From: Myxococcota bacterium
GTDB lineage: Bacteria; Myxococcota_A; UBA796; UBA2385
NCBI GenBank assembly: GCA_044344255.1
Contig: JBIJDH010000001.1
Location: 543,604 to 607,603, forward strand
DNA length: 64,000 bases
Reading direction: 5' to 3'
Position numbers and translations under genes: made by a program. A model generated the notes under the pieces. That model saw only the letters and a program-made list of their open reading frames with translations. It ran no database searches and was not told where the DNA came from. Every line of letters starts with the position of its first letter. Position 1 is the first letter of the stretch. Shown in pieces: positions 41,850 to 64,000 of this stretch.

Positions 41850-41952
41850 GTCTCCCTTGTACCACAGCACCCCTCCGCTGGCTGTCCTCCTCCTGCACCA
41901 TCGTTGCGCCAGCCTCGGCCCGAGCGCCTCCCCGCGGGCTAGAATGTCGGCC

Positions 41953-46927: not shown

Positions 46928-47830
46928 ATGCGCCACGACCTGAACGACGTCGCGGTCTTCACTGAGGTGGTGCGCCTCAAGGGCTTCACCGCGGCCGGCC
47001 GCGCGCTCGGCCTCCCCGGCTCGGCGGTGAGCCGGCGGGTGGCGCGCCTCGAGGAGGCCCTCGGCTTCACGCTGCTCCTCCGCACCACCCGCAGCGTCGG
47101 CCTCACCGAGGCCGGCCGCCGCTTCTATGAGCACACCGCCCAGATCGCGGGCCTGCTCGACGAGGCCGTGCGCGCCGCGGCGGGCACCCGCGACACCCCC
47201 TCGGGCCGCCTCCGCGTCACGGCGCCGCCGGACGACGGCGGGGTCATCTGGTCGCTGCTCTCGGGCTTCCTCCGCCTCCACCCCGAGGTCGACCTCGAGC
47301 TCACCCACACCCTCGAGCGGGTCGACCTCGTCGCCGCCGAGATCGACCTCGCCCTGCGCGGGGGCCCCGCGCCCGACTCGATGGAGTTCAGCGCCCAGAA
47401 GATCTACACCTCGCGCATCCTCCTCGCCGCCAGCCCCGCCTACCTCGCGCGCCGCGGCACCCCCGAGCAGGCCGAAGACCTCGCCGCTCACGACGGCATC
47501 TGCATGGACCCCTGGGCCCCGAACGCGATCCGCCGCGTCCAGGGCGACGGGGGCTATGTGCGCGTCAACATGCGGAGCCGGGTGCGCGCCAACAGCCTCG
47601 AGACGGCCCGCCGCGCCGCCGTCGACGGCCTCGGCGTCGCCCCCCTCCTCGAGCTCACCTGCCGGGGAGAGCTTGACCGGGGCGAGCTCGTGGAGGTCCT
47701 CCGCGGCGCCTTGCCCGACACCGCGCCCTTCTGGGCCCTCACCCCCCTCGCCCGCACCCGCTCGGCCGCGACGACGGCCCTGCTGGCCTACCTCGCCGAG
47801 CTGCCGCTCAGGCCGGACCGGGGAGGCTGA
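46928..47830 (+). CDS. LysR family transcriptional regulator
   Basis: N-terminal HTH FTAAGRALG...VSRRVARLE...RTTR-LTEAG. Confidence 0.92.
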   Translation: MRHDLNDVAVFTEVVRLKGFTAAGRALGLPGSAVSRRVARLEEALGFTLLLRTTRSVGLTEAGRRFYEHTAQIAGLLDEAVRAAAGTRDTPSGRLRVTAPPDDGGVIWSLLSGFLRLHPEVDLELTHTLERVDLVAAEIDLALRGGPAPDSMEFSAQKIYTSRILLAASPAYLARRGTPEQAEDLAAHDGICMDPWAPNAIRRVQGDGGYVRVNMRSRVRANSLETARRAAVDGLGVAPLLELTCRGELDRGELVEVLRGALPDTAPFWALTPLARTRSAATTALLAYLAELPLRPDRGG

Positions 47831-48021
47831 TCATCCACTGCACGCCGAAGCGGTCCAGGCACATCCCGAAGTAGGGCCCCCAGGGCGCGTTGGCGAGCGG
47901 CATGTGGACCTGCCCGCCCTCGCCCGAGAGCAGCGCGAAGGCGCGGTCGGCCTCGGCCTTGTCGCCGGCGACGAGCGAGATGGGTGCCGGGGAAGTTGAG
48001 GTAGATGTGGACCTGCTGCAT
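47808..48021 (-). pseudogene. PhnB/VOC family remnant with internal deletion
   Basis: N-terminal MQQVHIYLNFPGT joins out of frame to the C-terminal GGQVHMPL...WG-YFG-C-DRFGVQWM. Confidence 0.7.
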
Positions 48022-48142
48022 GTCTTCACGCTCCGGGGGTGACCGGCGCCCCGGGTCTCGGGAGGCCGCCGGGTGCTTTTCTACGGTGGGTCCGATCGGG
48101 GATGGGCGCCCGCGCTCCCGGCGCGGAGCCGGAGCGGCCCCC

Positions 48143-51029
48143 TCACCCCGCCGCCTTCGCCCGCAGCCTCTCCCACAGCCTGAAGTGGTTGAGCAGCATG
48201 TCCTTGATGCCGCGCCGCACCGCCTCGGAGTTGAGCGCCTGGGTGCTCATCAGCGTGTGGGCGTCGAGCGCGTCGATGATCGCGTTCATCAGCTCGGTGT
48301 CGAGGTCGGGAGAGCCGGCGAACTGCTCGGCGCTGTTGTTGCTCGCCTGCTGCGCCAGCAGGGCGGACTCCAGCACCTTGCCGAAGATCACCTGCCCGAC
48401 GAAGATGAGCTGGTCATCGTCGGTGAGCTTCCCGCTGAAGAGCTGGTTCAGCCGCTCGATGATCTCCCGCAAGGCCGCCCTCTCCCGCTCCTGCACGCTG
48501 CCGCTGCCGGCCTCGCTGGGCGGGTCGAGCTTCGGGGCCGCCCCCTCGCCGAGCACCATCGGCGCGGCCCCCTGCCCCTTCAAGTTGTAGTGAGTGAGCC
48601 TCACCTTCGAGAGGTCGATGCCCTCCCGCTCGCGCCCGAATTCCAGCAGCGGGAGCAGCCGCTTGTAGAAGATCCAGCGCTTCTCGATGGTCGAGCTCAA
48701 CGGCGACGACCCGCTCCACCTCGAAGTCGTGGTAATGGCCGGAAGCGTCGAGCTTGGCGCGCAGGTTGAAGACGAGGTGCGGGTCGGTGGTGGCGGAGAG
48801 CTCGGCCGTGCTGTGGTAGGCCTGGAAGGCGGCGAGCACCTCGGCCGGGTCATTGACGAAGTCCACGACGTAGGTGGTGTCCTTGCCGGGGTGCGCGCGG
48901 TTGAGCCGGGAGAGCGTCTGCACCGCCTGGATGCCCGCCAGCCGTTTGTCCACGTACATGCCACAGAGCAGGGGCTGGTCGAAGCCGGTCTGGAACTTGT
49001 TGGCCGCGAGCAGGAGCTGATACTCGCCGCCCTTGAAGGCCTCGCGGATGTCCCGGCCCTTGAGGTTCGGGTTCAGCGACCGGCTGTGCTCGGTGAAGGG
49101 ATCGGGCCCCGACTCCGGGTCGATGACCTCGCCGGAGAAGGCCACGAGCGTCCCGATCGTGTAGCCGCGCTCCCGGATTTAACGGTCCACGGCGAGCTGC
49201 CAGCGCACCGCCTCGAGCCGGCTGCTGACCACCACCATCGCCTTGGCCTGGCGGCTCAGCAGCGGCGCCACGTGGGCGCGGAAGTGCTCGACGACCACCG
49301 CCACCTTCTGGGCGATGTTGTAGGGGTGGAGCTTCACCCACCCGAGGAGCTTCTTGAGCGCGGCGCTCTTCTCCACCTCGGTGTCATCGAGCTCCTGGCC
49401 GTCGTGCGCCAGCTTGTAGGCGAGGCTGTAGGGCGTGTAGTTCTTGAGCACGTCGAGGATGAAGCCCTCCTCGATGGCCTGCCGCATCGAGTAGACGTGA
49501 AAGGGCGCGGGGAGGTTGTCGTCGGCCGGCTTACGCGTGGGGTCGGGGCGGGTGCCGAAGAGCTCCAGGGTCTTGTGCTTGGGCGTGGCGGTGAAAGCCA
49601 CGAAGGTGATCCCCACATCGGCGGCGCGGCTCCTCATCTGGGCGGCGAGCACGTCCTCGGCGCTCACCTCCCCGCCATCGCCGAGCTCGGCGAGCTCGGC
49701 GGCCGTCAGCACCGCCTTCAGCTTGCTGGCGGCCTCGCCGGTCTGCGAGCTGTGCGCCTCGTCGGCGATCACCGCGAAGCGCTTGCCCTGCGCCGCGGCC
49801 AGCTTGCGCACGGCCTCCAAGGCGAAAGGGAAGGTCTGGATCGTGCAGACGATGATCTTCTTGCTGCCGTCGAGCGCGGCGGCCAGCTCGGCGCTCTTGC
49901 TGCCGCCCTCGCCCCGGATCTGCTCGACCACACCCGCGGCGCGCGCGAATCCCTCGAGGGCCTCCTGGAGCTGCGCGTCGATGACGTTGCGGTCAGAGAC
50001 GACCAGCACGGTGTCGAACACCTTCTGGGGCTCGCCGCCCTGCGACGCCGATCGGTGCAGCTCCGCCAGGAAGTGGGCCGTCCAGGCGATCGAGTTGGTC
50101 TTCCCCGAGCCCGCCGAGTGCTGGATGAGGTACTTCGCGCCCGGGCCCTCCGCGAGCACCGCCGCCTGGAGCTTTCGTGTCACGTCGAGCTGATGGAAGC
50201 GGGGGAAGATGATCCGGGCGATCTGCTTCTTGTGGTCACGCTGGGTGACGAGGTAGCGGCCGAGGATCTCGAGCCAGCCCTCGCGCGCCCACACCTGCTC
50301 CCACAGATAGGCGGTGCGGTGCCCTGCGGGGTTGACGGGGTTGCCCGCCGCGCCGTTGTCCCCCTGGTTGAAGGGCAGGAACACGGTGGCCGGCCCGTCG
50401 AGCCGGGTCACCATGTGCACCTCGCGGCTGCTCACGGCGAAGTGCACGAGCGCGCCGCGGGGGAAGGAGAGCAGCGGCTCGGGGGAGTGGCCCTTCGGGT
50501 GCGGGAGCCGGTCGAAGCGGTACTGGTCTATCGCCGCCGTGATGCTCTGGGTGAACTCGGTCTTCAGCTCGACGGTGGCGACTGGGATCCCGTTCAGGAA
50601 CAGCACGAGGTCGATGCTGTTCTCGTTGTGGGTGGAGTAGCGCACCTGCCGGATGACCCGGAGGCGGTTCAGGTTGTAGCGGCCGACGAGCTCGGCGTTG
50701 AAGTCCATCGCCGGCTTGAACTGGGCGAGGCAGAGCGGCTGCTTCAGGCCCAGCAGCTCGACACCGCGGCGCAGCACGTCGAGGGTGCCGCGCTGGTCGA
50801 GCTGATCGCGGAGGCGGTTGAGGAGGGTCTCGGCGGCGCGGGCGCCGTGGTTCTTGGTGAGGGCCTCCCAGGCCTTCGGCTGGGCGCCGTGGACCCAAGC
50901 GAGCACGTCAGCGGGGAAGAGGGCGCGGGCCCGGTCGTAAGCGGCGGCGTCACCCTCGGCGTAGAGCCAGCCGTTCTGGGCGAGGTGGGCGCAGATCTCT
51001 TCTTCGAAGTTGATCTCTCTGTGAATCAT
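48143..51029 (-). pseudogene. hsdR: Type I R-M restriction subunit, inactivated
   Basis: ELK, HSAGSGKT, DEAH, FTATP and TGFD motifs. In-frame TAA at 49179-49181 and a frame change near 48690. Confidence 0.9.
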
Positions 51030-51118
51030 GCGCTCCTCCGCGCAGCGGAGGCGGGCGTTTCGCCGCCGTGAGAACAGATCTTCAACGAGGGGGATGGGGC
51101 GAAACGAGCACCCATCTC

Positions 51119-51344
51119 CACCGCAGAGGACGCAGACGACAGCGGGGAGAAACGACGGGCCCCGTCGAGGCCGGCCGAATCAGGACTCGAGCGCGCCGCG
51201 AGCAAAAGAACCGACCAAAGATCCTCCTCCCGCGCATCGCGGGGGGAGGTGGCGCCGCATCGGCGCCGGAGGGGGGCCGGCGGGCGACCTCGCAATACCG
51301 AACCACTCCCCCTCTCCACCGCTCTCTCCGCGTCCTCTGCGGTG
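51119..51344. repeat. Perfect 15-bp inverted repeats flanking ~196 bp
   Basis: caccgcagaggacgc (51119-51133) and gcgtcctctgcggtg (51330-51344). Confidence 0.7.
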
Positions 51345-51354
51345 AACGCTCTCC

Positions 51355-51667
51355 TCATGCCCGCACCCCCCGGACGTCCATCTGCCCCGTGACGGCGGCA
51401 GAGATCAGCGCGGTGCGCCGCTCCTGGAGGAGGTCGATGGCGCGCTGGGCTTCGGCAGTGAGGGCGTCGAGCTTGGCAGTCCTCCATGCGTCACCACTGG
51501 ATAGCTTCCTTCAGTACGCTCGGCGTCGGTGAGATCGTGTCCACGCTGGAGGGTCGAAAAGCGCTTGATTACCTTGACCGCCCAATGTGCCGGCACCTCC
51601 CCCAGCCACTCCACCCCGCTGTCCTTGTACTTCTGTCCTTGTACTTCGGATACCGCGGCAGGCTCAT
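51355..51667 (-). pseudogene. hsdS: Second hsdS remnant with most of the TRDs deleted
   Basis: MSLPRYPKYKD/SGVEWLGEVP-HW start and [15 protein letters not shown] end; 14-bp tandem duplication at 51619-51646. Confidence 0.85.
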
Positions 51668-52206
51668 GGCTTCTTCCCTTCGATGCGCTGAAAATCCCAG
51701 TTGAAGTCCGACGTTCGACCATACCATGCGTCCTTCCAAGTCCCGAGCACGGTCGGGTATGAGGCAGTCCTCTCCAAAATGGAAACGACTGTCCCAACCA
51801 AGAGGATCAAGGCGCAAGTGAGGTTCACCGGGTGCCTCTTCCCGGAGCGGGCGTGCTCCGCGACGAGCCGGTGCGGTCGGCCACGCCGCAGCAGCCCGAT
51901 GGTCGGCTTGTCATGATTGGCCTTCACCTGGGCGTCGACCGCCGCGATGTCGCAGTGGAGCAGCGGTCTGGAGATCGCCCGCCTCCCTTCGGTTCGAACT
52001 TGTAAGTCCTCCTTACAGGTTGCCTCCGCCTGTCGCTCGCCCTCCGCGTAGCGGGCGCGGAGGTGCTGCGTGATGTTCTGGAGCGTGGTCTGATTGAGTG
52101 TGGCCATCTGCGCCTGGGTGAGCCAGACGCGCTCTTCCTCGAAGCGACACTCCACCCGGGCCAGGCCGTCGGGCGTTTGATAGAGGATGACCTCCGAGCC
52201 GCTCAT
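51664..52206 (-). pseudogene. Chimeric remnant: RhuM-like N-terminus fused to a YhcG/DUF1016-like C-terminal fragment
   Basis: ILYQTPDG...VWLTQAQMA...NITQHL...EATCK...VRTEG, then AVDAQVK..HDKPTIGLL. Confidence 0.6.
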
Positions 52207-52295
52207 CCGCGCGCCCCCTCTCCCCGACAGGCGGAACTGGACGAGCCCGCATCGAGGCGTGGCGCATCTCCTCGGGCAAGCCCGGGGTCACGCCG

Positions 52296-53429
52296 GTGGA
52301 GGTGCGCATCACCGGACCGGACATCCCGATCCTGCGCGCGCTCGCCGAAGAGACGAAGACGGCCCTGCGCGGCGCGCCGCAGACGGGCGACGTGTTCGAC
52401 GACTGGGGCGCCGAGACCCTCAAGGTCTCGATCGACGTGGACGACGTGCGCGCCGACGCGGCGGGCGTGACCCGCGCCGACGTGGCGACCTCGACCCGGC
52501 TCGCCCTGTCGGGCACCCCGATGACCCAGCTCCGCGAGGGTGACCGGCTCGTGGACGTGCTGCTGCGGCTTCGCCCCTCCGAGCGGGCGAGCGCCGGCCA
52601 GGTGCGCGATCTGTACGTCTGGAGCGGCCGCAGCGGGCGCGCTGTCCCACTCGAGCAGGTGGCACGTACGAGCCACCGCATGGAGCCGCAGAAGATCGTC
52701 CGCTACGACCAGGAGCGCACGATCACGGTCGGCGCCATCCCGAAGGACGGCGAGCTGCCGAGCGTGCTGCTCGCGAACGTCCGCTCGAAGATCGCGGAAA
52801 TCCCGATGCCGGCGGGCTACCACGTGGAGTACGGCGGCGAGGAGGAGCAGCAGCAGGCGAAGGCGTTCGCCGCAGTGCAGATCGCGTTGAAGGTGTCGGT
52901 CACGCTGATCTTCCTCGTGCTCGTGTGGCAGTTCGCGAACGTCTTCAAGCCGCTCATCGTGTTCGCGTCGATCCCCTTCGGACTCGTCGGGGCGGTGCTC
53001 GGGCTCACCATCACCAACACCAACTTCGGCTTCATGGCGTTCCTCGGCGTCGCGAGCCTGGTTGGCGTCATCGTCAGCCACATCATCGTATTGTTCGACT
53101 TCATCGAGGAGTCGCGCGAGCACGGCGTGCCGCTGCACCGCGCGGTCATCGACGCGGGGCTGGTCCGCCTGCGGCCAGTCCTGGTGACGGTGCTCGCCAC
53201 GGTGGGTGGACTCGTCCCGCTCGCGCTGGAGGGCGGCCCGATGTGGCGGCAGCTCGTCTACGTGCAGATTGGCGGGCTCCTGCTCGCGACGCTCGTGACG
53301 AAGGGTGTGGTGCCGCTGCTCTACGTCGCGTTCGTCGAGACGTTCAAGCTCGTCCGCTGGGAGCCCGAGGCGCACGACCGTTCCGAGGGCGCACACAACG
53401 CCAACGCACACCCTGAGGTGCATCCATGA
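52296..53429 (+). pseudogene. RND (AcrB/CzcA-like) permease, C-terminal third only
   Basis: GGEEE, IPFGLVG, GVIV-H-IVL-D and RLRPVLVT motifs; only 377 aa with no N-terminal portion. Confidence 0.85.
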
Positions 53430-54034
53430 AGTTGGTCCTGCCTTGGGTCCTCGGTACGGTCGCCGTGCTGTTCGGGCTCCTGACCCTCTACGCCGGCGGC
53501 TCAGTGCTGCTCAACATCGGCTCCGCGCGGGCGGACCACGGCGAGTACGTGCCGTTCGTGCTGTGGTTCAACGTCCTCGCCGGATTCGCGTATGTCGGCG
53601 CGGGGATCGGCCTTGCGCTCCGCCGCCGCTGGGCGGGCCTCGTCGCGGTCGTGATCGCGTCGGGCACCGCGATCACGAGCCTCGCCCTCGGCGGGCACAT
53701 CCTGTCGGGCGGAGCGTTCGAGCGGGAGACCGTCATGGCGATGGGGGTGCGCTTCGTCTTCTGGACCGGCATCTCGACCTTCGCGTTTCTTTCCCACCGC
53801 CGAGGCTCCACAAGCGGAGCCCAACGAGGACCGAGAGGAGGAGCAGGCCGACAGGCAGGGAGACCGCCACCATGTCGAAGCCAGCGAACTCCGCCGCCGC
53901 CACCGCGACGGAGACCGCCACGACCATCCAGCCAAGGATGGTGCTCGCGCGTCGGGACCGTGCGCCGCTCCCCTGTTGCACGCGGGCGGCCAGCCACCCG
54001 TCCAACCCGTCGGAGCACAACATCCCGAGGGTGA
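53426..54034 (+). CDS. Small 4-TM membrane protein, apparently lacking its native stop
   Basis: Hydrophobic for ~120 aa (YVPFVLWFN-LAGFAY), then reads antisense through the NiCoT gene. Confidence 0.6.
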   Translation: MKLVLPWVLGTVAVLFGLLTLYAGGSVLLNIGSARADHGEYVPFVLWFNVLAGFAYVGAGIGLALRRRWAGLVAVVIASGTAITSLALGGHILSGGAFERETVMAMGVRFVFWTGISTFAFLSHRRGSTSGAQRGPRGGAGRQAGRPPPCRSQRTPPPPPRRRPPRPSSQGWCSRVGTVRRSPVARGRPATRPTRRSTTSRG

Positions 54035-54449
54035 ACGAGAGGCCCAGGTAGAGCGCCGGCACCTGCGCGATCAGCGAAAGCGCGGCGAGCTGGCTCGACG
54101 TCTCGAACCCGACCGCGAGCAGCACGCCGAGTAGCAGCGGGCCGTACCGAAGGGGGAGGGTGGGCAGCGCGTGGGCGTGGGGACGGAGGAGCCGCCAGGC
54201 GTTCGCCCCGGCGATCAATAGGAACAACCAGGGCGTTAGGAAGCCGAGGTCGAACTGGCCGGTCACCTGCTGAGCGCCCACCGCCAACACCGTGACGAGC
54301 CCGCCATGGCCCAGCGCGAAGAGCACCCCGTTCCACGCGCTCGGGCGGAGGCGGGAAAGGCCGTCAATCACCGCGAGGTGGTCCGCGTCGAGGCCGTGCC
54401 GGAGGCCGAGCGCCCACACCAAGCCCAGGTTCACGAGCATTCTGGGCAC
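53733..54449 (-). CDS. HoxN/HupN/NixA (NiCoT) family metal transporter
   Basis: GLRHGLDADHLAVID signature and GFETSSQ. Start may be 54440. Confidence 0.85.
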   Translation of the reverse strand: MPRMLVNLGLVWALGLRHGLDADHLAVIDGLSRLRPSAWNGVLFALGHGGLVTVLAVGAQQVTGQFDLGFLTPWLFLLIAGANAWRLLRPHAHALPTLPLRYGPLLLGVLLAVGFETSSQLAALSLIAQVPALYLGLSFTLGMLCSDGLDGWLAARVQQGSGARSRRASTILGWMVVAVSVAVAAAEFAGFDMVAVSLPVGLLLLSVLVGLRLWSLGGGKETRRSRCRSRRRSAPPSP

Positions 54450-54499
54450 CGGGGAGCGGAGAGAGGCATGCTCCGGCGACTAGCGCGCCTGCGACACTA

Positions 54500-54516
54500 A
54501 TGCAACTTAGATGCAT
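54500..54516. promoter_or_regulatory. Palindromic operator ATGCAAC-TTA-GATGCAT (candidate Fur-family box)
   Basis: AT-rich near-perfect palindrome upstream of the NiCoT gene; related sites at 55000-55014 and 55032-55040. Confidence 0.55.
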
Positions 54517-54974
54517 CAGCAATTTTCGGCAGACCCGTGGCAGCGGTCGCAGACGCCGCGGAACTGGATCGCGACCTTTCCTGAGCTCATGGCGATCGGA
54601 AGTTGCCCTTCCGGGAAGGGTAGGCTGATCGGTGGCAGGCAGGCGAGGTCACCGCAGGTCGTGCACAGGAAATGAGGGTGGTCGACCTCCGTGTGAGCCG
54701 CCCCGGCTGGCGCAGACTGTAGTTCAAACCGCCAGAGATGGTCGCCAAGATCGATCCGGCGAAGGAGGCCCGCCTCCGTCAGATCGACGAGGTTTCGGTA
54801 GAGCGTCGCCCGGTCCCAGCCATCAGCAGCCAACGCGGCGTACACCTCGGGGTGGCTGGACGGGGCGGCGTGACCGTGGAGGACGCGCAGCACCGCGACG
54901 CGCGCCGAGGTGGCCCGTAGGCCCGCCGCTCGTAGAGCGTCTCGGATGTCGGCGTCAGAGGGGTCGGTGCCCAT
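54516..54974 (-). CDS. Fur family regulator (Zur-like)
   Basis: GLRAT-AR, ATLYRNL, HPHFLCTTC and C-terminal CDRC. Confidence 0.9.
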   Translation of the reverse strand: MGTDPSDADIRDALRAAGLRATSARVAVLRVLHGHAAPSSHPEVYAALAADGWDRATLYRNLVDLTEAGLLRRIDLGDHLWRFELQSAPAGAAHTEVDHPHFLCTTCGDLACLPPISLPFPEGQLPIAMSSGKVAIQFRGVCDRCHGSAENC

Positions 54975-55066
54975 GAGGGGTGCTCCAGTGGGTTGCTTTC
55001 GCATCATAGTTGTAATATCATACGCAGGCGCAGTTGCATCAACCCCCTTCACGTAGCTGGTTCCCC

Positions 55067-56278
55067 ATGGATCGCCTCCCCGTCACCGTCCTCTCCGGCT
55101 TCCTCGGCGCCGGCAAGACCACGCTCCTCAACCACGTCCTCGCCAACCGCGAGGGTCGACGCGTGGCCGTCATCGTCAACGACATGAGTGAGGTCAACAT
55201 CGACGCCGCGCTCGTAAAGGGCGAGGCGCACCTCGATCGCACCGACGAGAAGCTCGTCGAGATGCAGAACGGCTGCATCTGCTGCACCTTGCGCGAGGAT
55301 CTCCTCATCGAGGTGCGACGCCTCGCCGCCGAGGGGCGGTTCGACTACCTCCTCATCGAGTCCACGGGCATCTCCGAGCCGCTCCCGGTGGCCGAGACCT
55401 TCAGCTTCGTCGACGAGAACGGTGTGTCCCTCGGCGATGTGGCCCGCCTCGACACGATGGTCACGGTCGTGGACGCCCTGAACTTCATGGAGGACTGGCA
55501 GAGCCTCGACGAGGTGCGCGAGCGCGGACAAGCTCTGAGCCCCGAGGACGACCGCAACGTCGTGCGCCTGCTCGTGGAGCAGGTCGAGTTCGCTGATGTG
55601 CTCGTGATCAACAAGGCCGATCTCGTCTCGACCGAGGGTCTCGCGTCGCTCCAGGCGGTGCTGGCCCGCCTCAACCCCCGCGCGCACCAGGTCGTCGGCA
55701 CGCGCGGCGAGGTTCCCCTCGGGGAGATCCTCGACACCGGGCGCTTTGACCTCGACGAGGCCAAGGCGGCACCCGGCTGGATGGCCGTCGCGCGGGGCGA
55801 GGCCCGTAGCGAGGCCGACGAGTACGGGATGAGCTCGTTCGTGTTCCGGGAGCGCCGCCCGTTCCACCCCGATCGGTTCGCCACCTTCATGCGGGAGAAG
55901 AAGGAGGGGGTCGTGCGCTCCAAAGGGTTCTTCTGGCTCGCGAGCCGACCGGAGTGGACGGGCGTGTGGGCGCAGGCGGGGCGGATCACCGAGCTCGGGC
56001 CCGGCGGGATCTGGTGGGCGGCCGTGGATAAGTCCCAATGGCCCGAGGATCCCGAGGAGCGCGCGGAGATCAAGTCCGGCTGGGTGAAGCCCTGGGGGGA
56101 TCGCCGCCAGGAGCTGGTGTTCATCGGGCGCAACATGGATCGGGCGGCCATCGAGGCAGGGCTGAAGACGGCCTTGCTCACCGACGCCGAGGTCGCCCTG
56201 GGGATGCGGAAGTGGCGGAAGTTCACCGATCCCTTCGACGCCTGGGAGATGGGTGAGCCTGAGGCCGACGATGCTTGA
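55067..56278 (+). CDS. COG0523 G3E GTPase metallochaperone (ZigA/YciC-like)
   Basis: [36 protein letters not shown]. Confidence 0.95.
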
Positions 56279-57428
56279 GTGGCTCATCGTGGGTGGCGGC
56301 ATCCACGGGACGCACCTCGCCCATGTCCTGCTGGCGGGCCGCGGCGTCGCGCGCGATCGCCTCGCCGTCCTCGATCCGCATCCTACGCCCCTGCATCGCT
56401 GGCGCGAATGCACCCGCGCCGTCGGCATGCGCTACCTCCGCTCTCCTTCCGTCCACCACATCGGCCTGGACCCCTTCGATCTCGTGGAGTTCGCGCGCGC
56501 GTGGCCGAGAGGCAGGCCGTTCACTCCGCCCTACGATCGCCCCGCGCTGGCGATGTTCGACGCGCACTGCGACACGCTGATCGCCCGCGAAGGGCTCGAC
56601 GCGGTGCGGATCCGCGGGGTCGCGCAGGCGATTTCCGCCGTCCAGGGTGGGTACCGCGTGCAGACCCCTGCGGGCGAGATCGTGACGAGGCGGATCGTCC
56701 TCGCCCTCGGCCTCGGGGAGCAGCCGCTCTGGCCGGGTTGGGCGCTCACCGCGCAGGCGTTCGGGGCCCGGGTGGACCATGTGTTCGAGCCTGGGTTCTC
56801 TCCCGATCAGGTGAGCGACGGGCCCGTGCTCGTCGTCGGCGGCGGGATCAGCGGTGGCCAGCTCGCCGCCTCGCTGGCCACGGCGGGGCGCGAGGTGCGG
56901 CTCTGGATGCGCCACGGGCTCCGCGTGCACCAGTTCGACAGTGACCCTGGGTGGATCGGACCCCGGTACATGGCGGGCTTCGCGAGAGAGGAGAGCGTGC
57001 CGAAGCGCCGCGAGATGATCGCCGCGGCGCGCCACCGTGGGTCCATGCCCCTCGATGTCGCCGATGACCTCGGCACGCACATCAAGGCGGGCCGCGTGAC
57101 GCTGATCGGCGGCGACTTCGAGGCGGCCGACGCGGTCGCGAAGGGCGGGCTCGTCCTGCGCACCTCGACCGGCTCCTGGGGGGCCGCGCACACGGTGCTC
57201 TGCACCGGATTCGCCCCGACCCGGCCCGGCGGCGCGCTCGTAGACGGGCTTGTCGCTGACCTCGGTCTCCGATGTGCGGGCTGCGGTTACCCCATCGCGG
57301 ACGCGACGCTCCAGTGGCGGCCGGGGCTGTTCGTCATGGGGCCGCTGGCCGAGCTGGAGCTGGGGCCAACGGCCCGGAACATCACAGGGGCGCGCGCGGG
57401 CGCGGAGCGGATCGCCCGGGCCGCGTAG
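56271..57428 (+). CDS. FAD/NAD(P)-binding oxidoreductase
   Basis: Two Rossmann motifs GGGIHG and GGGISG; LRSP-VHH; LCTGF; ELGP-ARNI-GAR. Confidence 0.85.
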
Positions 57429-57466
57429 GCCGCCTCCTCACCATTCACCAGGTTGAACAGATGTAC

Positions 57467-57937
57467 ATGAAGCTCTCACACATGATGCTGGCGGCGACGC
57501 TTGGGGGCGGCTGTGTGGCTGCCGAACCCCGGGATGCTGGGCCGGAGGATGACGACGAACACGACCACGACACGGCCTCGGACCCAGTCGACTGGGACGA
57601 TGCACGGACGCTCCTGACGGACGGGGGGACCTTTCAGGTGAGCGTCGTCATCGAGCCGGACCCCGCGGCCGTGGGCCAGCCGACCGATCTCGACATCCTC
57701 GCCATCTACGCGGATGACCCGGAGGCTCATCTCCACGACGTGACGCTCGAAACGAGCTTCGAACACTCAGAATCGGGTGCCGTGCGTGATGATGTGCCCG
57801 TTCGCGACCGGGGGCACGGTGAGTACCGCGTCCGCGACTGGATCTTCGACGTCACGGGCGTCTGGCGACTTGACTTTTGCTTCACCGACGCTGTCGACGA
57901 GGAGTCCGTGTCGTTCGAGCTGTACGTTCAGCCATGA
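57467..57937 (+). CDS. His/Asp-rich lipoprotein with YtkA/FixH-like Ig domain
   Basis: Lipobox-like GGC, DDDEHDHD tract, GEY...F...GVWRL pattern. Confidence 0.65.
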   Translation: MKLSHMMLAATLGGGCVAAEPRDAGPEDDDEHDHDTASDPVDWDDARTLLTDGGTFQVSVVIEPDPAAVGQPTDLDILAIYADDPEAHLHDVTLETSFEHSESGAVRDDVPVRDRGHGEYRVRDWIFDVTGVWRLDFCFTDAVDEESVSFELYVQP

Positions 57938-58992
57938 CGGGGCGCTCTTGGCGGATGGCCGTAGCGTTGTCTCTCTGGGTCACGACGGGTGGTCCTGCGA
58001 CGGCGGTATCTCCTCCGCCAGATTCAGCGCGGGCAGCGGCGCTCTACCAACGCTACTGTGCCTTGTGTCACGGCGGCGACCGGGAGGGGCACGCCGCCGA
58101 CCACGCGCCCTCCCTACGCTCGCCGGAGCTCCTGGGCACGGCATCACCGACGTACCTGTGGAGTGCCGTCGCCTGGGGCCGCCCGGGAACGGCCATGGCG
58201 GCGTTCTCCGACCAGCAGGGTGGGCCTCTTGGGCATGACGACATGCACATCCTCCTCGACTGGCTGGTCGCCGAAGCGGGCGTGGAGCGGCGTGCCCTGC
58301 CGGACACGGCGGTGAACGGGGATGCGGCCCTGGGCGCCGCACTCTACGCCCGCGAATGCGAGAGGTGCCATGGGGCCCAGGGAGAGGGGACTCTCGGTCC
58401 CGCGTTGGGCAACCCGGTCTTCCTGGCTACCGCCTCCGACGCGTTCCTGCGCGACAGCATCGCCCGGGGGCGAACCGGCACACCGATGGCAGCGTTCGGA
58501 GACCGTCTGACGACTGGGGAGTTGGACGCCTTGACGGCGTTCTTGCGGAGCCGGGCTGTGGGATGGGCCGCACCGGTGCCTGTACGTGTGACCCCTCCGC
58601 CGCCGACCGCTGCGGTCCTCAACAAGGGCGGCGCACCCGCGGAGCTCACCCCTCGCGAGGGGCGCTTCGTCGGCGTCGATCAGGTCCGGAGGGCGCTGGC
58701 CGAGGGCCGCCGCATCGTCCTGCTCGACGCGCGTCCCCTCTCGGACTGGCAGCGCGGCCACATTCCCGGCGCTCTCCCCGTACCGTTCTATGACGGCGTG
58801 GGCGCGATCACGCCGCACCTGCCTCGCGATGACACTTGGATCGTCGCCTATTGCGCCTGCCCGCACGCGGCGTCGGGTCGGATCGTCGACGAACTGCGTG
58901 TCCAGGGCTTCGAGCGTGCCGTGGTGCTCGACGAGGGCGTCCTGATCTGGGCCTCGCGCGGGTACCCCATCGCAATCGGAGGCGACCCCTGA
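57934..58992 (+). CDS. Di-heme cytochrome c fused to a rhodanese domain
   Basis: CALCH and CERCH each followed by GRxGTxMAAF; LDAR, GHIPGA, YCACPH. Confidence 0.88.
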   Translation: MTGRSWRMAVALSLWVTTGGPATAVSPPPDSARAAALYQRYCALCHGGDREGHAADHAPSLRSPELLGTASPTYLWSAVAWGRPGTAMAAFSDQQGGPLGHDDMHILLDWLVAEAGVERRALPDTAVNGDAALGAALYARECERCHGAQGEGTLGPALGNPVFLATASDAFLRDSIARGRTGTPMAAFGDRLTTGELDALTAFLRSRAVGWAAPVPVRVTPPPPTAAVLNKGGAPAELTPREGRFVGVDQVRRALAEGRRIVLLDARPLSDWQRGHIPGALPVPFYDGVGAITPHLPRDDTWIVAYCACPHAASGRIVDELRVQGFERAVVLDEGVLIWASRGYPIAIGGDP

Positions 58993-59717
58993 TGACATCG
59001 AAGGATCGTACAATGTTCAGCTTGCAATCGTTTTTCCCGTGGCACCCCCGCGGTGTCCCTTTCGTCGATACCGCTCCAACGCGTCGTTACCGCCCTGCGC
59101 TCGTGTCCGAGCGACAGGAGGTGCTGGAAGCGCTCGCGGGCGCCGACGCCGACATCGCGGTCTGGCGGCGGCCCGTCCCCGAGGGCTCGTCCACTGCGCT
59201 CGCGACCTGGGCATGTTCGAGCCCGCCCCCCTGCGACCGAACCTACCGGGTCCAGAGCTCCGATCTCGCGCCGTGGATCTCCGGCCTGGTCGACGCGGAG
59301 GCCAGAGCATGGCTCGAACGGGACGTCCGCACGCTCGTGGCACGTTTCGCGGGCGCGCTCGACGTGGAGGAGGTTCGGCTGGTGCTCGGCGTTGTGTCCG
59401 ACGACAAGTGCCGGAAATTCCACGTGGACAATCTACGTATGCGCATGGTCTGCACGTACGTCGGCCCCGGAACCGAGTGGGTGGAAGACGCGTGGGTGAG
59501 GCGCGAGGCGCTCACCCATGGCGCCGCTGGCGCGGTGACGAATCGGGGGATCGTCGATGGCCTCGATCACGTGGAGCACGCCAACGCAGGCGACGTTCTG
59601 TGGATCCGCGGGAGGTCCTGGCGGCCGGGGCCCTTCGGTGGCGTCCACCGGTCACCTTCGATCGCAGAGTCTGGGCAGGTCCGACTCGTCCTGGTCGTGA
59701 GCCCGCTGACCCCGTGA
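58992..59717 (+). CDS. DUF1826 family protein
   Basis: C-KFHVD, R-VCTY-GPGTEW and VHRSP motifs. Confidence 0.85.
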   Translation: MTSKDRTMFSLQSFFPWHPRGVPFVDTAPTRRYRPALVSERQEVLEALAGADADIAVWRRPVPEGSSTALATWACSSPPPCDRTYRVQSSDLAPWISGLVDAEARAWLERDVRTLVARFAGALDVEEVRLVLGVVSDDKCRKFHVDNLRMRMVCTYVGPGTEWVEDAWVRREALTHGAAGAVTNRGIVDGLDHVEHANAGDVLWIRGRSWRPGPFGGVHRSPSIAESGQVRLVLVVSPLTP

Positions 59718-59847
59718 CCCCGTAGCGCACGGGGCGGTCAGAGCAGTGGGATGGCCCCAATACCCCTTGCGGGTGACCGCTCCGCGGCCCACCGCTGCGG
59801 TTCTCGACCGGTGAACCCTCGAACCCGAGGGGCGGGTCAGGCTCGGG

Positions 59848-60074
59848 GTGATGACGGATCGGGGGGGCGATGAGGCCACAGGGGACAGGGGGTGATGACG
59901 GGGCGATGCCATTGCTCGGGAGGGCGATGCCGATGACGGAATTGTGGGCGTGATTCCGTGTCATCATCGACATCGGCAGGGATGGCATCGCGGGTCATCG
60001 GCATCGTCATCGGGCCGTGTCATCGGGGAAGGCATCGTCATCGGCATCATCGGGCTTGACATCGGAACCGATGT
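59848..60074. repeat. Mirror-symmetric GATG/CATC motif array
   Basis: 6 GATG copies (59850-59935), central IR acggaat/attccgt (59936-59959), 13 CATC copies (59962-60063), terminal palindrome acatcgg-aa-ccgatgt. Confidence 0.8.
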
Positions 60075-60084
60075 TAGTAAAGGT
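60056..60084 (+). promoter_or_regulatory. Putative promoter with overlapping palindromic operator
   Basis: TTGACA at 60056-60061 overlapped by ACATCGGAACCGATGT (60059-60074); weak -10. Confidence 0.5.
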
Positions 60085-60107
60085 AACTTGTGCTGACCTG
60101 GAGACTC

Positions 60108-60542
60108 ATGCCTACCCCCGCCTCCTCTCGCCCCATCGTGGACTCTGCAACGCTCTTCGGGCGCTGCATCGCCGTGATCCGGGCGGACCTCGGGCTCACC
60201 CAGGCGCAGATGGCCGCGATGTTGCGCGTGTCGCGCCCCACGCTGACCCACTTCGAGACCGGGCGGGCAACGCCGTCCTTCCACGTCCTGCTTCGTCTCG
60301 GGCAGCGTGTCGCGAAGGCGCGCGTCGACAGCGACGCCACCGCGGTGCTTGCGCTCCTGCACCTGACAGCGAGCGCGCTCCAGGCCGACGGCATCCGCGT
60401 GCTCAACCGGCCGGTCCGCGAGGGCGACGTCATCCTCGACTTCGCCAAGATCGACCGCGTCGTCGGCCGCGTCTTCGACCGCGAGTTCCGCGAGTACGTC
60501 CCCGCCAAGCTCGCCGACTTCTCCGGCGACGACGACGAATAA
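60108..60542 (+). CDS. XRE-family HTH protein
   Basis: IR-DLGLTQAQMA-MLRVSRPTL-HFETG; GGAGA RBS. Confidence 0.85.
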   Translation: MPTPASSRPIVDSATLFGRCIAVIRADLGLTQAQMAAMLRVSRPTLTHFETGRATPSFHVLLRLGQRVAKARVDSDATAVLALLHLTASALQADGIRVLNRPVREGDVILDFAKIDRVVGRVFDREFREYVPAKLADFSGDDDE

Positions 60543-60579
60543 CCAGCCTTCAACCAGCAAACAGGAACAGGAGAATCCC

Positions 60580-60984
60580 ATGGGCAAGTACGCATTCATC
60601 GACAACATCTTCGGACCCGACGAGGAAGAAGAGATCGAGGCGAACGACGCCTTCGACGAGGAGGAGGACGACGAGGAGTCCGGCGAGGAGTCGGACGACG
60701 ATGCCGACGACGACGAGGACGGCGAGGACGACGAGGACGACGACCAGCCCGTGGAGGACGACGCCATGCTCGCCCGTCTCGACAAGGCGTACCGTGCGCT
60801 CCGCGCCCGGGTTCGGGCGGTTTCCGACCTGCCCGAGCTGCGTACGATGCGGTCCGAGCACGCCGCTGCACTCGCCGGGCGTCAGAGCCCGACCCTGCGC
60901 CTGCGCACGCTCGACATCATCGAGGCCATCGACGACCGAGTCACCGATCTGCGCGCCAGCCGCGGCGGTCCCCGGAGCCAGTGA
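60580..60984 (+). CDS. Hypothetical protein with long Asp/Glu tract and helical C-terminus
   Basis: AGGAG RBS; ~45-residue acidic stretch. Confidence 0.75.
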   Translation: MGKYAFIDNIFGPDEEEEIEANDAFDEEEDDEESGEESDDDADDDEDGEDDEDDDQPVEDDAMLARLDKAYRALRARVRAVSDLPELRTMRSEHAAALAGRQSPTLRLRTLDIIEAIDDRVTDLRASRGGPRSQ

Positions 60985-62159
60985 TGTCCTTCACCTTCCG
61001 CGACTTCTCCTCCGATCGCTCGTTCATCGAAGCTACCGAGGACGACCGTGCGATCCTCGACTGGATGCGCGAGTACCGCGAGGATCGTGGTCAGGCTCAG
61101 GCGAGCGGCGACGACGACGCGGTGCAGGAACTCGACGACCTGCTCGAATTTGCCGAGGACCGAATCGTGGAGATCAAGGCGGCGCGGATCGCGGAGGTCG
61201 CGCCCAAGGTGGTACCGGCGCGTGCCGAGCCTGCGCCGGAGACGCGCCGTGTTGCGACCGCGCCAGTGGTCGTCCAGCGTGCGACCACCCAGCGGGTCCG
61301 GGAGGAGAGCAACGGCGCCGAGCGGCCACGCCGCCGCCAGGGGAACGAGGCGGCGGATGTCGCCGCCTCCAATCAGCTCGCGACGGACCAAGCAGCCGCA
61401 GAGCAGGCCGCAGCGGAGCGGAATCGGCGGGATGAAGAGGAGCTACGCGAACTCCGCGAGCGAGCGCGGAAGGCGGAAGCTCGGGTCAAGGCGGCGCAGG
61501 CCGAAACGGCCCGACTCAAGGCCATGCAGCAGCAGGCAGCGGTGGAGCAGGAGCGCGAGCGCCGGCAACGTGCGAAGGAACGCGCCGAGAAGGAGGCGAA
61601 GGCGCAAGAGAAGGCGGCCGCCGAGGCCGAAGCGACGGCGCGAAACGAGGCCGCGCACGTGCTCCCCAAGGTGGCGGCGACGCCTTCGCGCCCGGCCACG
61701 CCGGTCACGCCCGTGGCACCGATCCAGCGCCGCGACATCAGCACGAGCGGCGCTCGCCCCGCCAGCGGCCCCGTGGAGTTGACCCCGATCGCTCGTCGCT
61801 TCCAGGAGAGGCTCGCCGATGTGGTGCCCGACGCCCCTGCCCGGGTGCCCACCGCGCCGAGGGTGGCCGCGAGCGGGGCGCCCACGCCGAAGGGGGCGGT
61901 GAGGGCACCCCAGCCCCCGCCAGCGACTCCGGCTGCTGATTCCGTCGATGACCTCCCCTCGCTCACGGGCGCGGACCTGACCTCGTTCCGGAACTGGCTG
62001 GCCGTGAGCCAGCGCGTCCTCGCGACCAAGCTCGGCGTGGAGCAGAGCACGATCTCGAAGGGCGAGGGCAGGCCCACGATCGTCCTTCCCCCGCAGCTCC
62101 GAAAGGCGCTTCATCAGGCGATGGGCGAGCCCAGGCCAGACGTTGGATGTGCATCGTGA
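60984..62159 (+). CDS. Coiled-coil protein with C-terminal XRE-like HTH
   Basis: E/R/A/Q/K-rich middle, Pro-rich linker, LTGADL-FR-WL-VSQ-LA-KLGVEQSTISK-E. Confidence 0.75.
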   Translation: MSFTFRDFSSDRSFIEATEDDRAILDWMREYREDRGQAQASGDDDAVQELDDLLEFAEDRIVEIKAARIAEVAPKVVPARAEPAPETRRVATAPVVVQRATTQRVREESNGAERPRRRQGNEAADVAASNQLATDQAAAEQAAAERNRRDEEELRELRERARKAEARVKAAQAETARLKAMQQQAAVEQERERRQRAKERAEKEAKAQEKAAAEAEATARNEAAHVLPKVAATPSRPATPVTPVAPIQRRDISTSGARPASGPVELTPIARRFQERLADVVPDAPARVPTAPRVAASGAPTPKGAVRAPQPPPATPAADSVDDLPSLTGADLTSFRNWLAVSQRVLATKLGVEQSTISKGEGRPTIVLPPQLRKALHQAMGEPRPDVGCAS

Positions 62160-62656
62160 AGCTCGCGTCCCAACTCGCCGATCGGCAAGACCGGCTCATC
62201 GCGCGCGTGGTTGGACCCGTCCGCGATGCGGTGCGCGCCGGCCGGTCCATGTTCTGTTGCTTCGACCATCCGAATGGGACCACGCGGCTTGATCTGATGG
62301 GGCCGAACGGGCTGCTCGGCGGAGCCAGCGACGGCTTCCTCTGCGCGCCCGTGCCGACGCTTCGGCTCTGGTCCCCGTCCGCAATGTGCCGCCCGATCGC
62401 CCAGGCCGCTGCGAACAAGGACTTCCCCGCCGGACTCGACGCCATCGCCCGCCGCGCCGCCCCGCTGATCGGCGACGAGCTGCCGCTGCTGCTCGCGATG
62501 CTCGCCGCCATCCAAGAGGAGACGGCCGGGATGCGCTTCCGAACGGCCAACGTCGGCGCCCTCGTCACGAGTTCCGGGCGCCCCACCGCTGCGGCTTGGA
62601 TGTCCGCGTTGTCCCTCGCGGACATTCAAGCGGCGGTCCTCAAAACGGTTGCGTAG
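62147..62656 (+). CDS. Hypothetical protein
   Basis: Fills the gap between the HTH gene and the recombinase, co-oriented with both. Confidence 0.55.
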   Translation: MCIVKLASQLADRQDRLIARVVGPVRDAVRAGRSMFCCFDHPNGTTRLDLMGPNGLLGGASDGFLCAPVPTLRLWSPSAMCRPIAQAAANKDFPAGLDAIARRAAPLIGDELPLLLAMLAAIQEETAGMRFRTANVGALVTSSGRPTAAAWMSALSLADIQAAVLKTVA

Positions 62657-62668
62657 CCACCGAAAACT

Positions 62669-63898
62669 ATGTCAAGTAGAACCGGCACCTCTGGAGCCCC
62701 CATGACCATGATCGGAGCCGCGTATCTGCGGTGCAGCGACCCCCGGCAAGACAAATCGGTCCAGCAGCAAAAAGAAGAAATCGAACGCCGTGCCGCTGCC
62801 GATGGCGTGGTCATTCCTGCGTCGAACTGGTTCGTTGACGAAGGGATCAGCGGGCGCACCGCCAAGAAGCGCGCCGCCTACCAGTCGCTGCTCCGCGCTG
62901 CCGAGGGGCAGCGCGACTCGCGCATCGGTCGGCGCGCGGTGCGCGTTCAGGGCATTGACCGGCTTTACGTCTGGGCTTTCTCGCGGGTCGCCCGCAACAT
63001 GTTCGACTGTCTCAAAGCGTTGGCCACTCTCGACGAGGCCGATATCGACGTGATCTCGCTGACGGAGCCTGACGCCGGGGACAAGTCGTTTCGAAAGTTG
63101 ATCCGGCCGATTCTCGCGTGGCTTGCTGAACGTTACAGCGAGGAGCTCTCCCGCAACGTGGTCCGCGGGATGCGCTCGCAGGCCGAAAAGGGGTTCTGGC
63201 AAAATGGGCACGCGCCCTACGGATACGCGCTCCAGAAGGTCGAGGGCGGCACCAAGCTCGCGGTGACCGACGACACGCGCGCCGACTTCGAGACGGTGCA
63301 GCGGATCTTTGCCGAGTACCTCGTCGGCAAGGACGGCCAGAAGCGGCTCGCCGAGAAGCTGACGCGCGAGGGTGTGCGGCCCCCGAGTCGTGAAGTGGCC
63401 CGCGACCGGTTCGCCGGGACGTGGCGCCCGAAACACGTCCAGAACATCCTCACGAACGTGACGTATTGCGGCCACCTCGTGCAGAAGGGCGACGCGCTCG
63501 CGCGGAACTGCCACGACGCCGCGGTCACCGACGAGGACTTCGCGCGCGTCGCCGCCCTCCGCAAGTTGAAGGACCGCAACAAGGAGGAAGGCGGCAACGG
63601 GAACCACGCCATCCACATGAGCGAACGCGGCGTGCTCACGCCATGGCTGCGCTGCGGCTCCTGCGGAGGGCGGATCGCGATCACTGGCGGCGGCCACACC
63701 GGAAACATCCGCCACTACTACACTTGCGCGACCCGGCAGGAGAACAAGGCCAACTGCTCGGGCCTCTCCGTCCGCGTCGAGAAGCTGGACGCCGCGGTCC
63801 TCGACTACATCCACGACGAGGCCCTCTCGCCAGAGAGCGTCCAGGAGATGATCGACCAGGGCGTCGTGGCGCTCGCCTTGAGCGCTCACCCGAAGTAG
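62669..63898 (+). CDS. Large serine recombinase, probably C-terminally truncated
   Basis: YLRCS catalytic motif, DEGISG, SRVARN, APYGY, IL-N-TY-G, zinc ribbon CGSCG...YYTC...C. Confidence 0.92.
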   Translation: MSSRTGTSGAPMTMIGAAYLRCSDPRQDKSVQQQKEEIERRAAADGVVIPASNWFVDEGISGRTAKKRAAYQSLLRAAEGQRDSRIGRRAVRVQGIDRLYVWAFSRVARNMFDCLKALATLDEADIDVISLTEPDAGDKSFRKLIRPILAWLAERYSEELSRNVVRGMRSQAEKGFWQNGHAPYGYALQKVEGGTKLAVTDDTRADFETVQRIFAEYLVGKDGQKRLAEKLTREGVRPPSREVARDRFAGTWRPKHVQNILTNVTYCGHLVQKGDALARNCHDAAVTDEDFARVAALRKLKDRNKEEGGNGNHAIHMSERGVLTPWLRCGSCGGRIAITGGGHTGNIRHYYTCATRQENKANCSGLSVRVEKLDAAVLDYIHDEALSPESVQEMIDQGVVALALSAHPK

Positions 63899-64000
63899 AC
63901 CACTTGTGCTCACCAGAAGTAGTCCGGCCTGGAGTTCGCCTCCGACCCTTCAAACGGTGGCCGCGGGGGGCGGGGGCCCCGCACGGTGAGGCTTCGGGGA
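63879..64000. mobile_element. Probable IS21-family terminus
   Basis: TG followed by imperfect direct repeats gctcacccgaagtagacc (63884-63901) and gctcaccagaagtagtcc (63908-63925). No transposase within the window. Confidence 0.5.

Follow-up and report, generated by a model that had tools for sequence, protein, structure and literature searches.

Introduction

What kind of mobile element is served by a large serine recombinase (LSR) whose gene follows four co-oriented genes and a repeat array, and where does such an element insert? This question is raised by a 64,000-nucleotide stretch of a Myxococcota bacterium (assembly GCA_044344255.1, contig JBIJDH010000001.1, positions 543,604 to 607,603 of the forward strand), hereafter called the window, whose end coincides with the end of contig C18 of its own genome (G000). 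A first-pass annotation, made from the letters alone, had read the genes at 60108..63898 as the control and integration module of an uncharacterised mobile element. We consider it likely that they form the core of a recently transferred integrative element, the LSR of which acts together with a predicted partner protein to insert both the element and recombinase-less cassettes at the 3' ends of host beta-helix genes.

All genomes compared are fragmented, apparently metagenome-assembled drafts that are related among themselves. The LSR survey covers 80 loci, many of which are the same places as 23 loci collected earlier; the C-terminus is available in 67 of the 80.

Results

An attachment site within the recombinase gene

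The recombinase gene carries its own attachment (att) site: the core GGCCCGCC consists of the last codons of the LSR itself, which read Gly-Pro-Pro (GPP). In each of the first 23 loci (23/23), similarity ends after GGCCC(G/C)CC, the codons G-P-P, and in the larger survey the core GGNCCNCC is terminal in 51 of 67 LSR ends. Behind these 51 core ends follow a host-type arm (32), an element-type arm (9) or an unclassified continuation (10, three of them off-register). The protein tail past GPP is neighbour DNA, and the LSR C-terminus is variable because everything beyond the core comes from the neighbour. This tail measures 0 to 82 residues in the 30 loci caught by a motif filter, and zero in this genome.

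Read on the opposite strand, the core lies in the end of a host gene. The host protein finishes as D-x-G-A-Y|G-G-P-E-G-S-G-W*, the part past the bar being supplied by the element, and this replacement tail GGPEGSGW* fits the family consensus tail DxGAY-GGPxGxW* of host beta-helix surface-protein genes. These genes encode Beta_helix domains together with a putative metal-binding (Cu-binding_MopE-type) motif or similar repeats. GGPxGx(x)W stands on the reverse strand in 66 of 74 sites, the Trp codon having been part of the search filter, and the Gly codon in the sites is fixed at positions 1-2 and free at position 3. The element's two arms show symmetry around the CC at core positions 4-5, where crossover would be expected to occur. 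Of nine host-type sites in the own genome, this element occupies one, and another, at ~40692 in the window, is empty; junction-type sites were found genome-wide in G000 only at C56:2301 and C62:1441.

Several further observations concern these sites. The empty target (~40692-40699) belongs to window positions 39370-41870, where two tandem host beta-helix genes end in DxGxYGGP. The sites at C56:2301 and C62:1441 are remnants of other arrays, and C56 also carries a distant LSR with genes recalling AAA-ATPase/radical-SAM islands. A distant second LSR (577 aa; L018:218-1951; G053:C110) enters the same core with its 3' end from the opposite side, therefore two LSR clades share the target. Two sister subclades have similar flanks and other endings, namely …CGHDRS… (L127, L133, L135, L141, L142, L161, L165) and …GP(F/L)xRR* (L126, L131, L139), which suggests the same att-in-gene design with different host targets. 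On G040:C9, near-identical host-type arms lie 14.4 kb apart at 2792 and 17150 (L061, L045), possibly a duplicated target gene end.

Interruption of the recombinase in the window

Gene 5 was annotated as an LSR, and its domains bear this out: Pfam Resolvase and Recombinase along with Zn_ribbon_recom are found, the catalytic Ser motif and the coiled coil are present, and the invariants in 20 homologues are Y8-L-R-C-S12, R95/R98 and four Cys. The open reading frame (ORF) as read, 62702-63898, is however not a complete gene. Only its 5' part of 391 codons (62702..63876, + strand) is LSR, and the apparent stop at 63896-8 falls within an insertion sequence (IS) that cuts in at 63877. The last 124 bases of the window (63877..64000) match the ends of contigs C30, C48, C70 and C63 and are therefore the end of a repeated element, a multi-copy IS that breaks both the LSR gene and the assembly. 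We call it IS21-like because a similar opposite IS end in genome G027 adjoins an IS21-family transposase fragment (88.7 bits, under the cut-off of 160).

The missing part can be traced on contig C2. A 7-bp target-site duplication, CGCTCGC, precedes the IS (63870..63876, + strand). It is seen again on C2, right behind the opposite end of the IS, and is missing from the remaining three ends of this kind; two further pairs of contigs match similarly. There, C2:129-539 encodes 137 residues that continue the LSR of an intact relative at residue 391, the remaining part comprising 137 codons at C2:129-542 with the att core at C2:531-538. Aligned separately to that relative, the two halves show 98% and 93% identity. 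The LSR genes of the relatives are intact. Region 47000-64000 is present in contigs of four lake-water runs, one contig spanning the IS junction by less than 31 letters. Two other repeat-end groups were tried as the second end of the IS and rejected. A miniature inverted-repeat transposable element of ~350 bp, with ends like those of the IS21-like element and 5-7-bp duplications, occurs in at least five complete copies (C70:327.6-327.9k, C27, C73, C38, C47).

Since the LSR is split by the IS21-like element and no left end was found, the local copy of the element is probably stranded.

A predicted partner of the recombinase

The first-pass annotation had proposed the product of 62147-62656 as a possible recombination accessory factor. 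Relatives use a GTG at 62156 rather than the start at 62147, which leaves gene 4 with 166 aa (62156..62656, + strand), and the proposal has gained ground: by near-invariant position and predicted LSR binding this directionality-factor-like protein is the best candidate for such a role. In 69 of 80 loci gene 4 is found upstream of the LSR at a distance of 250 nt or less; six other loci are too short, and in three gene 4 stands farther off behind an insertion. A search with gene 4 alone over 401 genomes of the phylum found it in 17, which belong to one class. Nine further gene-4 loci emerged, six with an LSR next to the gene and three at a contig edge. Four homologues retain only the last ~45 residues, which correspond to the predicted interface.

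Structure prediction with a recombinase, suggested in the same annotation, points to binding. For gene 4 with residues 300-527 of the LSR of genome G038 the interface score ipSAE was 0.66, the best of three controls reaching 0.00. The score mark applied is reached by 116 of 157 solved complexes and by 2 of 215 mismatched pairs, and it holds roughly with our own alignments. At least 86% of contacts are common to the runs, and the predicted local distance difference test (pLDDT) value of the partner is at least 78. The predicted interface places partner residues 130-165 on LSR residues 340-391, 452-494 and 500-511, flanking both ends of a coiled coil read from sequence at ~400-452. The closest predicted pairs join LSR 505-509 with partner 136-141, which looks like an added strand. 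The model thus supports partner-LSR binding as a prediction. Verified recombination directionality factors (RDFs) are predicted to bind the zinc-domain/coiled-coil junction, mostly adding a strand (PMC12286644).

For the partner model (pLDDT 83.6), Foldseek stayed empty against both PDB and BFVD at E<=0.001, and the best VIA Z was 5.1. The protein had no usable match in the ESM Atlas and no match in IMG/VR or a phage collection. These fold-search nulls show neither a new fold nor relatedness. For the N-domain of gene 3, the ESM Atlas gave generic helical hairpins only.

It is also possible, though on balance we lean away from it, that the 166-aa protein binds the LSR as an obligate cofactor or inhibitor and switches no direction. 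Its near-invariant position would suit such a role. Likewise, the right arm and the host tails both read GGPxGxW* (in the 66 of 74 sites mentioned), and the element arms are symmetric about the core; because the occupied junction mimics the empty target, direction would not be readable from the sites as it is in phage integrases. Against a plain cofactor speaks the location of the predicted interface, which is where verified RDFs are predicted to bind.

Tandem arrays of small cassettes

In a search of 154 genomes of the order, the junction pattern was matched 93 times, in 38 genomes, compared with 6 matches for a reversed-pattern control, and it occurs in 23 of 33 genomes of one family (f7). 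Within 55 stretches (0.94 Mb) that were picked for carrying LSRs or junctions, 27 units lie between one site and the next, of which five measure 7-30 kb and 22 measure 865-4,008 bp. Four of the large units have a recognised LSR and the fifth a broken one. Among the 22 small units, 21 are without a remnant of the LSR or of a module gene.

By content, 13 small units are toxin-antitoxin-like (PIN/RHH, Phd/PIN, RHH/PemK, zeta, AbiE and UPF0175/DUF3368 types), three carry Fic, one DUF1016 and five surface or other genes; the Pfam check covered one or two members per family. They are compact, with end gaps mostly of 40-250 nt, and their genes lie on both strands. The same units recur end to end in different genera, with different neighbours on either side. 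Full-length alignment reaches 87-96% for the PIN/RHH units (930-939 bp), 71% for the Fic units (1614/1621 bp, G097 vs G149) and 77% for the RHH/PemK unit (870 bp), and a 4,008-bp unit is 100% identical behind two different LSRs.

The order of units differs from array to array. Read towards the host gene, the arrays are Phd/PIN, PIN/RHH, RHH/PemK, host in G153; zeta, Fic, DUF1016 and then a trio-bearing element (the trio being genes 1 to 3) in G097; PIN/RHH, Fic, Phd/PIN in G048; RHH/PemK, Fic in G053; Fic, host in G149; and this LSR followed by PIN/RHH in G148.

Tentatively, and with about one chance in three in our estimation, the system may go further and be an integron equivalent built on a serine recombinase, in which the LSR and a new partner family would excise and reinsert dedicated sub-kilobase cassettes singly, at a dual-coded site that at least two LSR clades, opposite in polarity, would have in common.

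A more conventional explanation, which we find rather doubtful, is an ordinary insertion hot spot: full elements would accrete at the regenerated site and decay, and the small units would be leftovers, like cis-mobilizable elements (CIMEs), that move only with their neighbours. The survival of toxin-antitoxin pairs would then be due to their resistance to loss. Accretion and decay are described for tandems of CIMEs with integrative and conjugative (ICE) or integrative and mobilizable (IME) elements (PMC5704250). One of the 22 small units retains a C-terminal LSR piece, right arms vary within some cassette families, and the cargo in the window is scrambled and without a left end. The remnant and the differing right arms fit both decay and accretion. 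Less easily accommodated by a hot spot are the 21 of 22 small units that are remnant-free and compact, and the recurrence of the same units, end to end, between different neighbours in different genera.

Distribution and the accessory genes

The five co-oriented ORFs are confirmed as tightly spaced, with intergenic gaps of 37, -1, -4 and 45 nt. Gene 1 (60108..60542, + strand) encodes an XRE-family helix-turn-helix (HTH) protein of 144 aa (Pfam HTH_31/HTH_3) that is 94-98% identical in four other genomes. Gene 2 (60580..60984, + strand) encodes an acidic protein with a D/E tract and a conserved C-terminal helical part, to which no family is assigned. Gene 3 (60984..62159, + strand) has a helical N-domain, a coiled coil, a Pro-rich linker and a C-terminal XRE-like HTH, weak in the window copy (HTH_31 E 0.002) and detected in 8 of 9 homologous C-termini. 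Genes 2 and 4 have no meaningful family in Pfam, PHROG, NCBIfam or PADLOC, and PADLOC gave generic HTH matches only. Homology of the C-domain of the acidic protein with the N-domain of gene 3 was considered and rejected as not significant (E 0.13). Directly 5' of the LSR start, at 62666-62682, a TTATGT-N4-TA(C/G/T)AAC-like motif is conserved across subclades, possibly as an own promoter or operator of the LSR.

The genes recur together in other genomes, in agreement with a module of a mobile element. A search of 101 genomes found XRE homologues in 10, the own genome counted. Among the ten relative loci, the complete ordered set of five genes is present in four (an IS66 sits in gene 3 of one of them), two have the trio up to the contig end, and four have the XRE gene without this LSR, two of these adjoining a tyrosine integrase. 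In the case of G038, DNA identity is 88% over 59889 to 63876 and onward into C2. The LSR is 91-98% identical in five genomes of another family, far above the 62-65% of RecA and LeuS, which argues that the element has been transferred horizontally in recent times.

All-against-all clustering of 362 element-locus proteins, with part of the cluster representatives compared with Pfam, left only the LSR (23 labels) and gene 4 (21) as near-universal. The XRE gene, the acidic gene, gene 3, a VapE helicase, other HTH genes and type I restriction-modification (R-M) genes are patchy. The idea of a fixed five-gene unit is not supported. In other LSR subclades the trio is absent, inverted or joined by the VapE helicase, and the XRE gene is absent in L089, L093 and L097. 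In loci L023 and L025 (G077:C56, G025:C44) the neighbours from which the trio diverges are a tyrosine integrase gene and an excisionase-like HTH_17 gene; different integrase types thus have the trio in common. Both the XRE/acidic/coiled-coil trio and the array of repeats are accessories that can be separated from the rest; our guess is an exchangeable module for regulation or maintenance. The annotated lack of phage structural or conjugation genes extends to the relatives, as no capsid, terminase, relaxase or conjugation family is shared among the element loci in the clustering.

The trio bears on another reading, that the elements are replicons like phage satellites or tycheposons, in which trio and array would serve replication or helper sensing and the subclade of the window would be a helicase-less derivative. 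We regard this as unlikely, though compatible with the preferred explanation, as it is about transfer and not integration. Sister subclades do have, in the same operon, a VapE/VirE helicase together with divergent HTH genes; in tycheposons, integrases are paired with VirE helicases (10.1101/2020.12.28.424599), and the trio also sits by tyrosine integrases with an excisionase-like gene. Yet no capsid or terminase family is common to the element loci, IMG/VR holds no LSR of this clade (3 matches of 25-29% only), and the partner, as said, is without match in the phage collection. A search of PLSDB likewise gave no close LSR.

The original proposal of a self-contained five-gene system whose two HTH proteins read the array to control the LSR is improbable. 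In its favour, 7 of the 80 LSR loci keep the order, with many of the rest too short for it to be seen, and the array and promoter-like motif are conserved. Against it, one complete module (G053) is without the array, the XRE gene can be absent, the trio is inverted or replaced in other subclades, and a separate conserved motif stands directly before the LSR start.

Repeat array and upstream cargo

Upstream of gene 1, GATGRC motifs followed by inverted GYCATC motifs surround a central spacer (59894..60048), a candidate operator or origin. With 14 motifs in ~200 nt, the array ranks highest among ~79,000 windows of the genome. It is conserved in five of six other copies and is not obligatory, because the module of G053 is complete without it. 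A promoter-like TTGAC...TTAGTA element, overlapped by the palindrome ACATCGG-AA-CCGATGT (60056..60083, + strand), is conserved in aligned copies; a consensus promoter scan did not call the element in the window copy. The palindrome is a possible XRE operator. On C57 (L004:1555-2297), a second array stands with an XRE gene (94% aa identity) and the first ~18 codons of the acidic gene, after which the copy switches abruptly to an oppositely oriented adenylation-domain-like fragment.

Farther upstream, 47808..59717 is probably scrambled cargo of the present element or of earlier ones. It holds broken type I R-M genes hsdR/hsdS, a RhuM-like fragment and a 5'-truncated RND gene, and hsdR, RhuM-like and RND clusters recur as cargo of related elements. 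A metal-homeostasis cluster (53733-59717: NicO, Fur, CobW, oxidoreductase, cytochrome c/rhodanese, DUF1826) adjoins the truncated RND gene. Neither a left-arm matrix, whose best score of 7.8 fell within a host gene, nor a motif scan found a left att site in the window; because of this, the membership of the cargo in the element is an inference. Tandem ~19-bp repeats (GCCCTTCGGGGCCATCGCA-like) on C5, C6, C7, C70 and C78 are unrelated to the element.

Comparison with known systems

The closest known systems are the accretion of staphylococcal cassette chromosomes (SCC) and CIMEs on the one hand, and the placement of attP within the integrase gene of phage Mx8 on the other. The Mx8 integrase is a tyrosine recombinase that acts at tRNA genes. 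Its likeness lies in an att site within the integrase coding sequence, so that integration gives the enzyme a new 3' end, while Mx8 is a phage with two attB sites (PMC6070905). Since the LSR tails vary here from 0 to 82 aa in 30 loci, a fixed regulatory tail is disfavoured.

With SCC and SCCmec, our system shares an LSR, tandem att-bounded cassettes at a gene end, recombinase-less cassettes and defence-type cargo (PMC11470126). The enzyme, however, is not a Ccr (NCBIfam 74/59/28 bits vs cut-offs of 700/900/900). The target is a multi-copy beta-helix/MopE-type surface-protein family, in contrast to the rlmH 3' end of SCC, and the cassettes are single operons of 0.9-4 kb, in contrast to 24-68 kb (PMC11470126). 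Furthermore, the att site lies within the LSR gene and a dedicated partner protein is predicted. Thus, among the features that define SCC, tandem recombinase-less att-bounded cassettes are present, and the ccr recombinase and rlmH insertion are absent.

In the case of CIMEs, the small units are alike in keeping both att sites without integration or transfer genes. CIMEs are by definition decayed ICEs or IMEs (PMC5704250), whereas 21 of 22 units here have no remnant and their order is shuffled. No conjugation or relaxase family is common to the loci. Site-specific serine-recombinase IMEs disrupt their target genes (PMC5704250), whereas the target would be restored here.

Integrons resemble the arrays in small mobile cassettes, toxin-antitoxin enrichment, insertion at one array end and shuffled order (10.1101/2024.07.02.601686). 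The system is nevertheless not an integron by definition. The enzyme that ends in the site is an LSR and not an IntI tyrosine recombinase (the arrays themselves without a separate intI scan), and it rides on units bounded by the same sites in place of a fixed intI-attI-Pc platform. Cassette genes face both ways, unlike the co-oriented promoterless cassettes of integrons, and no Pc-like promoter was identified. The attC sites of integrons recombine as folded single strands; the sites here are short arms symmetric about an 8-bp core.

Other comparisons are looser. RDFs are similarly encoded beside an LSR, and their predicted place of binding is likewise where zinc domain and coiled coil meet (PMC12286644), whereas gene 4 has no sequence-family or fold match. 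The pdif modules of Acinetobacter plasmids are also small site-bounded accessory modules in tandem, moved by host XerCD at plasmid dif-like sites (PMC6449649), whereas an element-encoded LSR would act here at chromosomal gene ends. Tycheposons and satellites differ in that the target here is protein-coding and not tRNA. As to replication and packaging genes, VapE occurs in sister subclades and not in this module, and no capsid or terminase cluster is shared. LSRs that target gene families have been described, in text that, as far as excerpted, makes no mention of 'Myxo' or 'tandem' (Durrant et al., 10.1101/2021.11.05.467528). In the open-access literature (PMC, bioRxiv) we found no description of this LSR clade, no LSR with an att site in its own 3' end and no LSR-built arrays of sub-kilobase cassettes.

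Discussion

The element is real and is a variant of LSR accretion systems. Four features are unusual, in part observed and in part predicted: the site is dual-coded, the target is a multi-copy protein family, the sub-kilobase cassettes are shuffled, and the partner family has no known relatives.

We propose the following mechanism. Firstly, the LSR would insert its own element into the 3' end of a host beta-helix surface-protein gene, and the opposite strand of the core would restore the host protein tail. As the tail is rebuilt by element bases, each insertion would recreate the target and elements would stack. The occupied right junction would thereby resemble an empty target. Secondly, the next unit would insert next to the host gene and displace older units, so that the newest lies nearest to the host. 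Units that have both arms and no enzyme would be moved in trans. Thirdly, prediction places the 166-aa partner on the zinc domain, at the coiled-coil base, where it may set or license the direction of recombination.

Several points weigh against this proposal. Counts across genomes are not independent, because the genomes are related, fragmented drafts. The join of C18 and C2 that unites the LSR halves is deduced from sequence and not assembled, and the extent of the local element to the left is uncertain because no left att site was found in the window. Among the 67 LSR ends, 16 are without the core, including contig ends and sister subclades with other endings, and 2 of the 80 loci lack gene 4 although upstream DNA is present. 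The complex was modelled with the G038 enzyme and our own alignments, and virtual RDF matches include false positives (PMC12286644). Apart from the small unit with the LSR piece and the varying right arms, other cassette pairs diverge near the right end, and neither excised circles, empty/occupied allele pairs nor single cassettes on the move were observed in the available contigs.

If the proposal holds, each insertion would rewrite the C-terminus of the LSR beside the predicted partner-binding strand. The system offers an LSR whose 8-bp core is exactly mapped, sites that vary naturally in dozens of forms, and a candidate for a directionality factor without known relatives. It also raises the question of what lets an LSR control direction if its target is created anew by integration. 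In conclusion, uncultured Myxococcota-type bacteria would, if this is true, collect and reshuffle toxin-antitoxin and surface-protein genes by means of a serine recombinase, in the fashion of an integron.

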